Positions 532 through 4,960 of a stretch of DNA of 5,732 nucleotides are shown piece by piece. This stretch comes from Escherichia coli (GTDB lineage Bacteria; Pseudomonadota; Gammaproteobacteria; Enterobacterales; Enterobacteriaceae), in the NCBI RefSeq assembly GCF_030013595.1, contig NZ_CP122774.1. One strand, written 5' to 3'. Under the pieces are notes generated by a model. The model had not been told where the DNA came from. It made no database searches and saw only the letters and a list, made by a program, of their open reading frames with translations. The translations under genes and the position numbers were made by a program. Each line of letters begins with the position of its first letter. The first letter of the stretch is position 1.

Positions 532-679
532 AGAATTTCGGTCTGGCCTTTCGTTATCCCGCTCACAGGCTGGGAGGGTGTGACCCCCGGCATCAGCACC
601 CCTCTCTCGAGGTTCCGGTTTGTGCTGACAACATTAGTATCCTATTCCACATGTTCGTTGTCAAACTAGCGTACTTTTT

Positions 680-770
680 GGTGTTCATTGGTGTTTATAG
701 GTTGTCATTTACCCTCTTTGTGGTTATAAGTGTTTATAGGTTTTCATTGTTTTTTATAGGTGTTCATATG
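680..770. repeat. Direct-repeat array: three copies of TTTATAGGT(T/G)NTCAT(T) plus GTTCAT half-motifs, overlapping the promoter and start of the downstream HTH gene
   Basis: tttataggttgtcatt at 694-709, tttataggttttcatt at 733-748, tttataggtgttcat at 754-768; ggtgttcatt at 680-689. Spacing between copies is 39 and 21 bp. Confidence 0.6.
702..730 (+). promoter_or_regulatory. Putative sigma70 promoter (TTGTCA, 17 bp spacer, TATAAG) for the AlpA-like gene
   Basis: -35 TTGTCA at 702-707, 17-nt spacer, -10 TATAAG at 725-730, embedded in the repeat array about 40 bp upstream of ATG 768. Confidence 0.35.
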
Positions 771-1070
771 AAGTTGCTTGATAGTAATGAAGTGTGTGAG
801 CTCTTAGGCATCAGTAAGTCCACTTTGTATCGTTGGTGCGGGGTGTCTGAGGATTTTTCTGGCTTGGGTCTAAGTAGCGGTCTTCCTCAGGCTAACGCTA
901 CTCAGAACTCTTTAGGCAGGGAAAATAGGCTCGTTAGGAGGGAATTACAGCAAAACGCTCTCGGTGTCGAAGAGACGCCAAGCGACTTCCCTCGTCCTTT
1001 CAAGATCGGTCGTTCGTTTAAATGGAAAGACGCCGAAATTATGGCTTGGCTTGAAACGCGACGCGTTTGA
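768..1070 (+). CDS. AlpA/Xis-family-like helix-turn-helix DNA-binding protein (about 100 aa) with an internal insertion
   Basis: N-terminus LLDSNEVCELLGISKSTLYRW and C-terminus FPRPFKIGRSFKWKDAEIMAWLE match the AlpA/excisionase-type HTH pattern (xLSRSTIYR ... FPKPxKLGxRxxxWxxxEIxxWL). The listed ORF begins at 528, but its first 80 codons are translation of the repeat array and the first plausible start is ATG 768. Both start and product are uncertain. Confidence 0.5.
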   Translation: MKLLDSNEVCELLGISKSTLYRWCGVSEDFSGLGLSSGLPQANATQNSLGRENRLVRRELQQNALGVEETPSDFPRPFKIGRSFKWKDAEIMAWLETRRV

Positions 1071-2598: not shown

Positions 2599-4330
2599 GT
2601 TTCATGCCAGGGGAAAAGGCGGTGGCAGTGGTCCGGTTGATTACCTGCTGGGAAGGGAGCGTAACCGGGAAGGGGCAACGGTGCTTCAGGGTAATCCGGA
2701 AGAAGTCCGGGAACTCATCGATGCCACGCCATTTGCGAAGAAATACACGTCAGGTGTTCTGTCGTTCGCGGAGAAGGAGCTGCCGCCTGGAGGGCGTGAA
2801 AAAGTGATGGCGAGCTTTGAGCGTGTACTGATGCCCGGTCTCGAGAAAAATCAGTACAGCATCCTGTGGGTGGAGCACCAGGACAAGGGACGGCTTGAGC
2901 TGAATTTTGTCATTCCGAACATGGAGCTACAGACCGGAAAACGCCTCCAGCCGTACTACGACCGGGCAGACAGGCCGAGAATTGATGCCTGGCAGACGCT
3001 GGTTAATCACCATTACGGGCTGCATGACCCCAACGCCCCGGAGAACCGCCGGACGCTGACCCTTCCTGATAACCTGCCGGAAACGAAACAGGCGCTTGCA
3101 GAGAGCGTCACACGCGGGATAGACGCTCTTTATCATGTCGGGGAGATAAAAGGCCGTCAGGATGTGATTCAGGCGCTCACAGAGGCAGGGCTTGAAGTGG
3201 TCAGGGTGACGCGAAGCAGTATCAGCATTGCAGACCCGAACGGTGGGAAGAATATCAGGCTGAAAGGAGCATTTTATGAGCAATCTTTTACAGACGGGCG
3301 CGGAGTTCGAGAAAAAGCTGAAAGAGAGAGCCGAATCTACAGAGACAATGCTGAACGACGAGTTCAGCAAGCTCGAAAAATCTGTAAGCAAGGCTGTGAC
3401 ATCAAACGAGACGAAAATCAAAGACGCTATAGCCCTGTTCACAGCTTCGACAGAGGAATCACTGAAAAAACACCGGGAAGGGGTGAAAGAGGCGATGATG
3501 CAGCACAGGAAGGACGTGTTAAAGCTGGCAGGGAATACGGGCATGATGTTACTGGGGATGGTCCTTTTCCTGTTTACCGTGAGTGGCGGGACGCTCTGGT
3601 ATCTTGGCGGGCGGATACAGGCGAACCTGGAAGAAATCAGGATACAGGAAGAAACATTGCAGAAACTGAACGCGAAGACATGGGGCGTGGAGTTTGTGCA
3701 GGACGGGAGAAGGAAATTTCTGGTCATCCCGCAGGGGAAATCGGCAACGGTGATTCCCTATCAGGAGAAGGACTGGGTACAACTGACGGAGTGACACAGA
3801 GTGACGGAGCTGGAAAGACATTTGCTGAACGCCTTAGAGCAACTGCAACAGGACTATATGCAGCGGCTGAGCGAATGGGAGAGCGCCTTCGTGGAATTGC
3901 AGAAAATGTTTTCGCTTACGCAACGGGACAACGCGATGCTGAACGAGCAGGTCATGCAGTTGAGTCAGCAGGTGCAGCACTTGAGCGAGCGGACAGAACG
4001 CTTGAGCCAGTTATACAGCGAGAACAGGAGATAAGGGACGAACGGCTGATACAGGAGCGCGAACATGAGTTATCCCTGGAGCGTGAGCGCCAGCTGGAAA
4101 TACAGGAACGGACACTGGATGGCATGGTAATCAGAGACAGGCTAAAATGTTGTCAGCGCGTTTCCGGTGCATTTTTTGGGATAATGGTTGGTTCGGGGGC
4201 ACCGGGAACGCGCTTCAGTCAGACCTTGCTGAAAACACAGGAACGCGTTAAAACGCATACGGGCGCGATTCTGGTGTGTCTTTTGTTGCTGTGTTTTGCC
4301 TCTATTGCCAGATCGCGCTCATTCCCCTGA
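2588..4330 (+). CDS. mbeA: Mobilisation relaxase MbeA (ColE1-type). 580 aa from ATG 2588 (the ORF track starts 4 codons earlier at 2576); 3' boundary should be verified.
   Basis: N-terminus MIVKFHARGKGGGSGPVDYLLGRE is the canonical relaxase start. The ORF overlaps the mbeC stop by 11 nt and contains mbeB and mbeD in the +1 frame, as in ColE1. The hydrophobic C-terminal tail (ILVCLLLLCFASIA) is atypical. Confidence 0.85.
   Translation: MIVKFHARGKGGGSGPVDYLLGRERNREGATVLQGNPEEVRELIDATPFAKKYTSGVLSFAEKELPPGGREKVMASFERVLMPGLEKNQYSILWVEHQDKGRLELNFVIPNMELQTGKRLQPYYDRADRPRIDAWQTLVNHHYGLHDPNAPENRRTLTLPDNLPETKQALAESVTRGIDALYHVGEIKGRQDVIQALTEAGLEVVRVTRSSISIADPNGGKNIRLKGAFYEQSFTDGRGVREKAERESRIYRDNAERRVQQARKICKQGCDIKRDENQRRYSPVHSFDRGITEKTPGRGERGDDAAQEGRVKAGREYGHDVTGDGPFPVYREWRDALVSWRADTGEPGRNQDTGRNIAETEREDMGRGVCAGREKEISGHPAGEIGNGDSLSGEGLGTTDGVTQSDGAGKTFAERLRATATGLYAAAERMGERLRGIAENVFAYATGQRDAERAGHAVESAGAALERADRTLEPVIQREQEIRDERLIQEREHELSLERERQLEIQERTLDGMVIRDRLKCCQRVSGAFFGIMVGSGAPGTRFSQTLLKTQERVKTHTGAILVCLLLLCFASIARSRSFP
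3276..3794 (+). CDS. mbeB: Mobilisation protein MbeB (172 aa), nested in the +1 frame of mbeA
   Basis: 172-codon ORF with AGGAG (3265-3269) 6 nt upstream of ATG 3276. Position and length agree with ColE1 mbeB; it has a central hydrophobic segment (MMLLGMVLFLFTVSGGTLWYL). Confidence 0.8.
   Translation: MSNLLQTGAEFEKKLKERAESTETMLNDEFSKLEKSVSKAVTSNETKIKDAIALFTASTEESLKKHREGVKEAMMQHRKDVLKLAGNTGMMLLGMVLFLFTVSGGTLWYLGGRIQANLEEIRIQEETLQKLNAKTWGVEFVQDGRRKFLVIPQGKSATVIPYQEKDWVQLTE
3801..4034 (+). CDS. mbeD: Mobilisation protein MbeD (77 aa), same frame as mbeB, GTG start 6 nt after the mbeB stop
   Basis: GTG at 3801 with GGAG 10 nt upstream. Coiled-coil-like sequence (LEQLQQDYMQRLSEWESAFVELQKMF...). 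Position corresponds to ColE1 mbeD. Confidence 0.7.
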   Translation: MTELERHLLNALEQLQQDYMQRLSEWESAFVELQKMFSLTQRDNAMLNEQVMQLSQQVQHLSERTERLSQLYSENRR

Positions 4331-4435: not shown

Positions 4436-4577
4436 TGCATAGCTATGCATGTGGTTAAAATTTACCGGGTGCGATCGCGGCAGTTTTTCGGGTGGTTTGT
4501 TGCCATTTTTACCTGTCTGCTGCCGTGATCGCACCGAACGCGTTTCTGCGGTGCGGGCAACGGATGTTATGGTAAAT
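4436..4577. other. cer/psi-like Xer site-specific recombination (multimer resolution) site: accessory region with a palindromic box plus XerC/XerD core
   Basis: Core GGTGCGGGCAA-CGGATG-TTATGGTAAAT (4550-4577). The right arm is identical to the cer/dif XerD arm TTATGGTAAAT as I recall it, and the left arm is GGTGCG..CAA like the XerC arms. A perfect 14-bp palindrome TGCATAGCTATGCA (4436-4449) lies about 100 bp upstream, where cer carries its ArgR box. Confidence 0.55.
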
Positions 4578-4693
4578 ATTGGTGCTCTGGGATGAAGCGA
4601 AAATAGGCTTTTTTTCGCTATTTTAGCCTGTTCAGGAACGGCAAGAGTAAATATCTGGGAGCATGAAGCTCGTTAACCTGAATGGAGATCCTG

Positions 4694-4858
4694 ATGATGG
4701 ACAAAGATACCACCACCCTAAAACGCACTTTGGCTCATAATCGAGCCTTTAGCGATAATATTAACCGCAGTGGCATAGCCTGGTGCTATAACACTGAGAT
4801 TGTACTCGCTGCTTGTGAGGCGATTGAAGCCGAACTACAACGGCGAGGATGTTTGTAA
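4694..4858 (+). CDS. Small hypothetical protein (54-55 aa: MMDKDTTTLKRTLAHNRAFSDNINRSGIAWCYNTEIVLAACEAIEAELQRRGCL)
   Basis: Not in the ORF track (below its length cutoff). GGAG at 4684-4687 sits 6 nt upstream of tandem ATG ATG (4694-4699). TAA at 4856-4858 is followed within 10 nt by a strong terminator. Confidence 0.4.
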   Translation: MMDKDTTTLKRTLAHNRAFSDNINRSGIAWCYNTEIVLAACEAIEAELQRRGCL

Positions 4859-4865
4859 CAATAAG

Positions 4866-4889
4866 AAAACCCGCATCAGCGGGTTTTTT
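4866..4889 (+). terminator. Rho-independent terminator
   Basis: aaaacccgc-atca-gcgggtttttt: perfect 9-bp stem, 4-nt loop and a T-run. Confidence 0.75.
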
Positions 4890-4960
4890 AGTCTCTGAGA
4901 CGCGCTACCGCTAAATTATTTTTCTCTCTATCCGCCCTGGCTTGCCCCCTACAACCCCAT

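Follow-up and report, generated by a model that had tools for sequence, protein, structure and literature searches.

A loop-expanded AlpA/HTH_17-type gene with a phased repeat array beside the ColE1 origin of an Escherichia coli plasmid, a candidate autorepressor

The Streptomyces regulator BldC binds variable numbers of direct repeats at promoters as head-to-tail cooperative multimers (PMC5859096). The excisionase RdfS oligomerises and binds attP as well as its own promoter (PMC11963761), and proteins of the AlpA family promote the excision of islands (PMC9376610). Here, we analyzed a gene for a helix-turn-helix (HTH) protein of the AlpA/HTH_17 type, called the HTH gene in the following, on a 5,732-base stretch of DNA (the window) which represents nearly all of a 5,775-bp mobilisable ColE1-type plasmid of Escherichia coli. 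The gene immediately precedes the ColE1 origin. Plasmids of this type are the textbook example of a replication control exerted by RNA only, with Rop as an optional helper. We consider it fairly probable that the encoded protein multimerises head-to-tail on phased repeats at its own promoter and thereby represses its own gene. The superfamily and the likely binding mode are already known. No description was found, in the literature searched, of the loop-expanded clade, of its co-conserved phased operator, or of the conserved placement of the gene, be it next to the primer promoter of ColE1 or ahead of PD-T4-5 genes. Searching the literature for AlpA, excisionase or HTH proteins in ColE1-type plasmids yielded nothing relevant.

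The HTH gene (768-1070, + strand) runs from ATG 768 to TGA 1068-1070 and encodes 100 amino acids, preceded by a Shine-Dalgarno sequence AGGTG read from the sequence at 758-762 (+). An initial annotation of the window had described an HTH protein of the AlpA/Xis type with a linker of about 45 residues between its two halves, and this architecture was borne out by profile matches, structure prediction and fold comparison. Positions 1-22 of the Pfam model HTH_17 (PF12728) matched residues 3-24 (E 1.2e-6) and positions 29-51 matched residues 77-99. Likewise, positions 2-24 of Phage_AlpA (PF05930) matched residues 2-24 and positions 27-51 residues 72-95 (E 0.012). Both families thus matched as two halves, with about 45 residues of the protein standing in for 2-6 positions of the models. 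The N-terminal half (residues 3-24, 774-839, +, pLDDT 85-87) comprises strand b1, helix a1 and the recognition helix a2, the C-terminal half (residues 72-100, 981-1067, +) the motif DFPRPFKIGR, a beta-hairpin wing and helix a3 with W86, W94 and L95. AlphaFold2, run on an alignment of 28 sequences, placed b1 at residues 3-5, a1 at 6-13, a2 at 17-24, two strands at 78-80 and 83-87, and a3 at 88-99, with a core pLDDT of 81-88. Whether the insert is folded or disordered had been raised along with the initial annotation; the prediction favoured a disordered loop of residues 29-67 (852-968, +), with pLDDT values below 50 for residues 29-59 and 61-67, in a region unalignable among homologues. The model consisted of winged helix-turn-helix (wHTH) elements and the disordered loop only, with no coiled-coil or effector domain.

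The best fold matches in the PDB were the BldC-DNA complexes 6ama and 6amk (TM-score 0.73-0.77 on target), the excisionase RdfS (8dgl) and the AlpA-family excisionase of GIsul2 (8c3t), with TM-scores of 0.63-0.77 on target overall. At the sequence level, the clade profile matched residues 21-59 of the 8c3t chain, excisionase PHROGs matched the protein at E ~1e-6, and the NCBIfam model TIGR01764 'excise' gave 27.8 bits, one below its cutoff of 28.8. The protein shares with Phage_AlpA and HTH_17 proteins (CP4-57 AlpA, GIsul2 AlpA, Tn916-type Xis) the N-terminal b-a-a HTH, the C-terminal FPxPxxxGR...W...W-L wing plus helix, the small size and the occurrence on mobile elements. The canonical members of 54-75 amino acids consist of one contiguous domain of about 50 residues, whereas the domain of the HTH protein is split, and each half alone scored only weakly, with Phage_AlpA reaching just the E-value given above. 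Judged from sequence and model, the HTH protein most likely binds DNA in a sequence-specific manner and belongs to the MerR-like/excisionase winged-helix class (HTH_17/Phage_AlpA), within which it is a member of a divergent, loop-expanded sub-clade and not a typical member.

The annotation of positions 768-1070 in public records is inconsistent. Many records of identical plasmids show no feature there, some list a 100-residue 'helix-turn-helix domain-containing protein', and CP057081 gives 188 amino acids from an upstream TTG through the repeat array. A longer reading frame of this type (from TTG 528, 180 amino acids; 180-188 in annotations of the CP057081 type) was rejected, as most of the listed homologues start at a conserved M(K/R)L. 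The N-terminal extensions called for homologues were mutually unrelated and are an artefact of stop-free T-rich repeats. The gene is thus often unannotated or called from the wrong upstream TTG, and the practical value of the finding is modest.

A word-indexed search identified 34 homologues of 85-125 amino acids and two partial sequences; homologous loci are referred to by L numbers below. The first approximately 28 and the last approximately 30 residues were nearly invariant, while the middle part was unalignable. The alignment contained 14 invariant and 18 near-invariant columns, with the recognition helix ISKSTLYRW invariant across the clade. Among the codons that differ from the gene of a Pectobacterium plasmid (L008), 16 were synonymous and 1 was non-synonymous in the N-terminal stretch of 28 codons; the C-terminal stretch of 30 gave 17 and 0, respectively. 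Because synonymous changes are many and both halves are nearly invariant, both halves are under strong purifying selection, and the HTH gene is a real one. A decayed gene was rejected on the basis of the same codon changes. The clade is rare. An exhaustive HMM search of 1.84 billion representatives returned only 21 clusters at E <= 1e-10, below which canonical AlpA/HTH_17 proteins of 54-75 residues followed, matching the clade profile as two separate stretches. Three true loci were found among 100,044 species genomes (the profile search of contigs returned 14, the remainder being generic HTH hits), and tblastn detected the clade in 20 of 72,556 plasmid records and no homologue in 50,697 phage records.

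In each of the 47 clade members measured, 13-64 residues separated the recognition-helix tryptophan from the FP motif (median 49; window 50, W23 to F74), compared to 5-8 residues in 27 of 28 canonical hits. The initial annotation had considered a recent insertion, corresponding to positions 845-990 and missing from homologues. This idea had to be abandoned: every clade member is loop-expanded, and the relatives with a short loop form separate lineages, of which one occurs in a phage-like operon. The loop insertion is old and clade-defining, with its presence conserved and its sequence not. Between plasmids of ~94% identity, a 24-bp in-frame indel flanked by GCTAA(C/G)GCT was observed in the loop, and the six substitutions in the reading frame, read from the alignment, were all in the loop and all non-synonymous. 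The loop of the Pectobacterium gene contains 2.4 copies of a 36-bp tandem repeat encoding GLGLS(D/N)AQKKFA repeats. The reading frame was preserved through every indel. The loop changes by slippage indels and tandem duplication. It probably serves as a flexible spacer or an interaction surface that tolerates sequence change, selected for its presence and not for its sequence. A small winged helix which tolerates and retains a loop of 30-60 residues, disordered and hypervariable, between recognition helix and wing is a compact natural model in which the role of such loops in filament-forming DNA binders can be studied.

Upstream of the gene, the 15-mer TTTATAGGTNNTCAT occurs exactly three times (694-708, 733-747 and 753-767), with an expectation of 0 in 200 shuffles. 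These three copies, reported in the initial annotation as the repeat array, are real and conserved, but the description as three repeats fell short: the full array consists of eight same-strand (+) units of 10 bp in two blocks, with a consensus of roughly WGGTNTTYAT. Block A (679-708, +) contains three contiguous units, TGGTGTTCAT, TGGTGTTTAT and AGGTTGTCAT, starting at 679, 689 and 699. Block B (718-767, +), offset by 39 bp from block A, contains five contiguous units, TTGTGGTTAT, AAGTGTTTAT, AGGTTTTCAT, TGTTTTTTAT and AGGTGTTCAT, starting at 718, 728, 738, 748 and 758. The lag-10 autocorrelation of the array was 0.59 (p ~2.5e-4 after correction over lags), and no second array or unit cluster was found elsewhere in the window. 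As annotated initially, the repeats are interleaved with the sequence TTGTCA-17-TATAAG, which occurs once (702-730, +), is conserved in homologues and represents the putative promoter of the HTH gene by hexamer match. The -35 hexamer TTGTCA (702-707) falls within the third unit of block A, and block B overlaps the -10 hexamer, the predicted 5' UTR and the Shine-Dalgarno sequence.

Phased units ending in YCAT recurred upstream of homologues down to ~47% identity, within otherwise unalignable DNA. An equivalent trio of units was present at about -90 to -55 upstream of L008, L010, L004, L015 and L007. The Pectobacterium locus keeps the promoter hexamers and their 17-nt spacing though the spacer sequence differs, and a Klebsiella plasmid (L036) carries TTGTCA-17-CATAAT. 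Upstream of the start codon, the Pseudomonas locus L004 shows the phased units TTGTCAT AGGGTTCCAT TAACATCCAT AAGACGCCAT TTGTTGTCAT TGGCTATCAT TGGCGATCAT, L010 the units TTGATGTCAT AGGTGTTTAC AGGTTGCCAT, and L007 the units TGATTGTCAT TGGTATTCAT; similar arrays precede L015, L033, L035 and L036. In five of eight lineages (window, L008, L004, L015, L007) the lag-10 phasing exceeded both local-window and shuffle nulls. The array and the gene travel together on ColE1 plasmids, on one Rep_3 plasmid and on Pseudomonas integrative elements. The repeats are phased and co-conserved with the HTH protein. In the Pseudomonas arrays, which are GC-richer, the YCAT motif is maintained in the absence of T-tracts, and this argues for specific recognition and against generic curvature.

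From the analogy with BldC and RdfS we infer that the protein binds the repeats, multimerises head-to-tail and represses its own transcription. Protomers would bind head-to-tail and cooperatively, one per helical turn, on the eight same-strand units between 679 and 767. As these units extend over the -35 and -10 regions, the initial 30 nt of the transcript and the ribosome-binding site, the bound protein would repress its own gene. It might also affect a divergent promoter-like site found by promoter scan 15 bp from block A (TTGACA-17-GATACT, 664-636, -), which precedes a region resembling the small RNA (sRNA) sraL. BldC, the best structural match, is likewise a wHTH-only protein without a dimerisation domain, and its target promoters carry same-orientation direct repeats at about one per helical turn, an arrangement also found at the HTH promoter and conserved in its homologues. 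The BldC repeat AATTNNNN(C) measures about 9 bp, compared to the 10-bp unit WGGTNTTYAT. Unlike the HTH protein, with which it shares only ~12% sequence identity, BldC lacks an internal loop and regulates development from the chromosome. RDFs (recombination directionality factors) of the RdfS/lambda-Xis type share the wHTH fold and form oligomers or filaments on DNA, and relatives of the HTH gene are located at the edges of integrative elements. In contrast to RdfS, the HTH protein does not possess the extra N-terminal helix through which RdfS oligomerises, and no recombinase was recognised in the window.

Several observations weigh against this interpretation. In the hexamer TATAAG the final T, which is highly conserved, is missing, and TTGTCA-17-TATAAG was not listed by a consensus promoter scan, for which reasons the promoter is called putative here. 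The conserved TTGTCAT unit could partly be just a conserved -35 element. The lag-10 phasing was not significant upstream of L012 and L013 and marginal in L010. The Foldseek E-values were weak (0.24-0.5), owing to the very small size and the interruption of the domain. Finally, the proposed autorepression leaves the function of the loop unexplained.

The gene was found in three genomic settings. In the first, it abuts the replication origin. The origin of the window is marked by the antisense copy-control RNA I (1125-1226, -; Rfam RF00106, 77.1 bits) and by a site with -35 TTGAGA (1084-1089), a 17-nt spacer and -10 TAGTCT (1107-1112), read from the sequence. By analogy with the pMB1/ColE1 promoter, we take this site (1084-1112, +) to be the promoter of the replication primer RNA II. 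Its -35 element begins 13 nt past the HTH stop codon. The initial annotation had noted that the gene adjoins this promoter; the abutment itself turned out to be conserved in diverged lineages, with 13-14 nt between stop codon and -35 in the window, L008, L010 and L033 and the same geometry in L017, where the gene ends ~55 nt before the RNA I 3' end, giving five lineages in all. In the second setting, represented by four lineages (L007, L013, L036, L037), a strong terminator lies behind the HTH gene, and then come a conserved leader (CT(A/C)(A/G)AGGTACAC ... GCTCCT) and a PD-T4-5/AbiD-like defence gene (E 5e-29, 6e-33, 1e-14 and 8e-32). These modules span 1149-2387 in L007, 1824-3042 in L013, 3724-4656 in L036 (continuing across the contig ends) and 2236-3428 in L037. 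The recurrence suggests a conserved two-gene module not described for PD-T4-5. In the third setting, the gene is located at the edge of an element. It is the first gene inside Pseudomonas tRNA-Ser(CGA) islands, and in another Pseudomonas element (L034, L035) the array lies ~65-120 bp inside the left end, with Phage_GPA, a relaxase and, at the far end, a large serine recombinase also encoded; this element was detected at two sites in chromosomes. The lineage L012 carries the gene on a Rep_3 plasmid.

These settings are compatible with three non-exclusive roles, namely a replication-coupled feedback, the regulation of adjacent cargo, and the function of an RDF, each of which we rate as unlikely to quite unlikely. 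A coupling to replication would extend the proposed autorepression: the autorepressed gene would be a copy-number-sensing unit feeding the ColE1 primer promoter. At low copy number the promoter P(HTH) would be derepressed, and read-through transcripts crossing the RNA II promoter and carrying the RNA I target would prime replication or titrate RNA I, comparable to CopB in R1 and CopG in pMV158. In these systems, as with CopR of pIP501, the gene of a small autoregulated DNA-binding protein closely precedes, in the same orientation, a replication transcript that is controlled by antisense RNA. The likeness is one of function, while the folds are unrelated (CopG is a ribbon-helix-helix protein) and ColE1 has no Rep gene to repress. 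Besides the spacing kept in five lineages at protein identities down to ~47-50%, the co-orientation of the HTH gene and RNA II in every ColE1 case speaks for such a coupling, as does the fact that no terminator-like site was found in the window between the HTH stop codon and the RNA II promoter. Nevertheless, relatives also reside on a Rep_3 plasmid and on chromosomal elements, four ColE1 or small-plasmid lineages have a strong terminator and another gene before the origin, and no copy of the array lies near the RNA II promoter. Moreover, the PD-T4-5-like gene of L007 ends ~20 nt from the -35, and the abutment may just be a boundary of cargo insertion. Overall, we regard the coupling as a tentative idea with odds clearly against it. 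In the same improbable range we place, by analogy, an unrecognised protein layer of ColE1 copy control formed by array and gene, with the loop tuning multimerisation or plasmid specificity, and the related possibility of a PD-T4-5 regulator. If true, a DNA-binding gene that is conserved, autoregulated and located 13-14 nt from the primer promoter in several diverged lineages would be a candidate for an extra control or insulation layer.

As a cargo partner, the HTH protein would regulate the adjacent PD-T4-5/AbiD-like gene, the window copy would be an orphan after loss or exchange of that gene, and the loop would be an interaction or sensing surface. The gene order recurs in four diverged lineages, and six of six non-synonymous loop substitutions together with the tandem duplication resemble fast, possibly adaptive change, although six of six is not significant against the neutral expectation. 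The window itself lacks a PD-T4-5-like gene, yet at least 12 plasmids carry its HTH gene intact and in identical form. No array precedes the PD-T4-5 genes, PADLOC catalogues PD-T4-5 under a single name, and PD-T4-5 is a single-gene system; on balance this partnership is doubtful. Even less probable is a role as RDF, in which the array would be an arm-type architectural site and the protein would assist XerCD at cer on the plasmid. The closest relatives in sequence and fold include excisionases, the family is implicated in island excision as cited above, and the gene or its array sits at the termini of the Pseudomonas elements and, in L007, ~80 bp from a cer-like core. On the plasmid, no integrase or recombinase was recognised among the listed window open reading frames (ORFs) of at least 30 amino acids, which were not individually screened, and the cer-like site (4549-4576) is ~1.9 kb away from the array around the circle. 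To our knowledge, there is no RDF for XerCD at cer. Excisionases have a cognate recombinase and an att site on the same element; the Pseudomonas relatives, unlike the window plasmid with its listed ORFs, have recognised recombinases at the far end of their elements. The overlap of the array with the gene's own promoter is explained by autoregulation without recombination. An arm-type-site role would fit the integrative relatives and not this plasmid. We give very little credence to the view that the repeats are unrelated to the protein and represent curved T-rich DNA, an H-NS site or the iterons of a lost Rep, next to a decaying, disrupted AlpA gene. The array is indeed T-rich with phased T-runs, and the gene is unannotated in many database copies. 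Opposed to this are the strong purifying selection on both halves, the frame kept through indels, the loop-bearing form as the norm of the clade, the motif and phasing kept in the GC-richer Pseudomonas arrays, and an origin of the ColE1 RNA I/RNA II type with no Rep-like product recognised among the window ORFs.

Two further candidates from known systems were rejected. An iteron/Rep origin, with Rep proteins of two winged-helix domains and about 250-350 amino acids, disagrees with a 100-residue protein with a single wHTH at a ColE1 origin. The antiterminator AlpA of P. aeruginosa shares only its name and an HTH reading a promoter-embedded element with the protein described here. It is Q-like and built of eight helices, with the HTH located C-terminally and an N-terminal segment that forms a ring within the RNA exit channel (PMC9371919). 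Such a function was dismissed on architecture, and this protein was absent among the PDB sequence and fold matches.

Turning to the plasmid as a whole, identical copies were found in ~12 records, with CP122737.1 sharing the coordinates, and rop, mobC, mbeB and mbeD are annotated in a homologous plasmid record. The region upstream of the array (496-629, -) gave a full-length match to the Hfq-binding sRNA family sraL (RF01408, 84.7 bits versus a gathering score of 39). This sraL-like sRNA is located between a YjaZ-like gene and the HTH array, is divergent from the HTH gene and has a terminator stem at 522-502. The divergent promoter-like site at 636-664 (-) is placed such that it could drive this sRNA. 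Outside the HTH gene, the sraL-like region (496-660) had plasmid matches in 19 of 5,426 complete E. coli genomes, with an identity of >=99% in 12 cases; blastn detected similarity on plasmids only and none on the chromosomes of these genomes. The sRNA was also present in L008, L016 and L017. The YjaZ-like gene belongs to a two-gene cassette (5193/5220-5732 plus 1-495, +, contiguous on the circle) with overlapping stop and start codons (TAATG). The first gene encodes a variable protein (X) of 116-193 amino acids, whose window copy of 170 residues matched nothing in Pfam, NCBIfam, PADLOC or PHROG. The second encodes a conserved 164-residue protein, a weak relative of YjaZ (NF007263, E 5e-6; PF27200 in L008). 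The X-YjaZ-sraL cassette also occurs without the HTH gene on 8.6-9.7-kb plasmids of Klebsiella, Citrobacter and Dickeya, and is therefore regarded as a separate module. For the same reason, the HTH gene as regulator of this cassette in a fixed unit was rejected. Homology with the plasmids devoid of the HTH gene ends at window position 630, and the divergent promoter at 636-664 falls on the HTH side of this junction.

Some additional features were observed. A 58-residue ORF at 4682-4858 (+) matched phrog_35409 of unknown function (E 3e-13) and is directly followed by a GC-rich inverted repeat with a T-run at ~4866-4890. The putative Xer site at 4549-4576 reads GGTGCGGGCAA-CGGATG-TTATGGTAAAT and is cer-like by comparison with the cer consensus. 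L007 contains two cer-like sites in direct orientation ~190 bp apart, the second of which lies ~80 bp upstream of its HTH array. The Pseudomonas element of L034 and L035 (from ~5824 onwards) has an identical left end with differing flanks, directly after dprA in L035 and ~460 bp from a Sua5/TsaC gene in L034. Identical left-end sequence with different flanking DNA in two genomes indicates a mobile integrative element. In L012, a 61-residue ORF (2999-3184) ends inside the HTH array (~3150-3240). We take this ORF to resemble the N-terminal part of a HigA-type antitoxin, and it looks as if the module of array and gene had recombined into a HigA-like gene. L016 (Pseudomonas reidholzensis contig NZ_UNOZ01000043.1, 6,239 bp) is an enterobacterial-type ColE1 plasmid in a Pseudomonas assembly, with an HTH protein identical to that of 5,413-bp plasmids of Enterobacter and Klebsiella, and may reflect an unusual host or a contamination. 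The whole L037 contig represents a ~2.5-kb plasmid duplicated head-to-tail, either as a dimer or as an artefact of assembly. Finally, the Pectobacterium plasmid (L008) carries a match to the C4 antisense RNA at 5782-5869 (-; RF01695, 76 bits).

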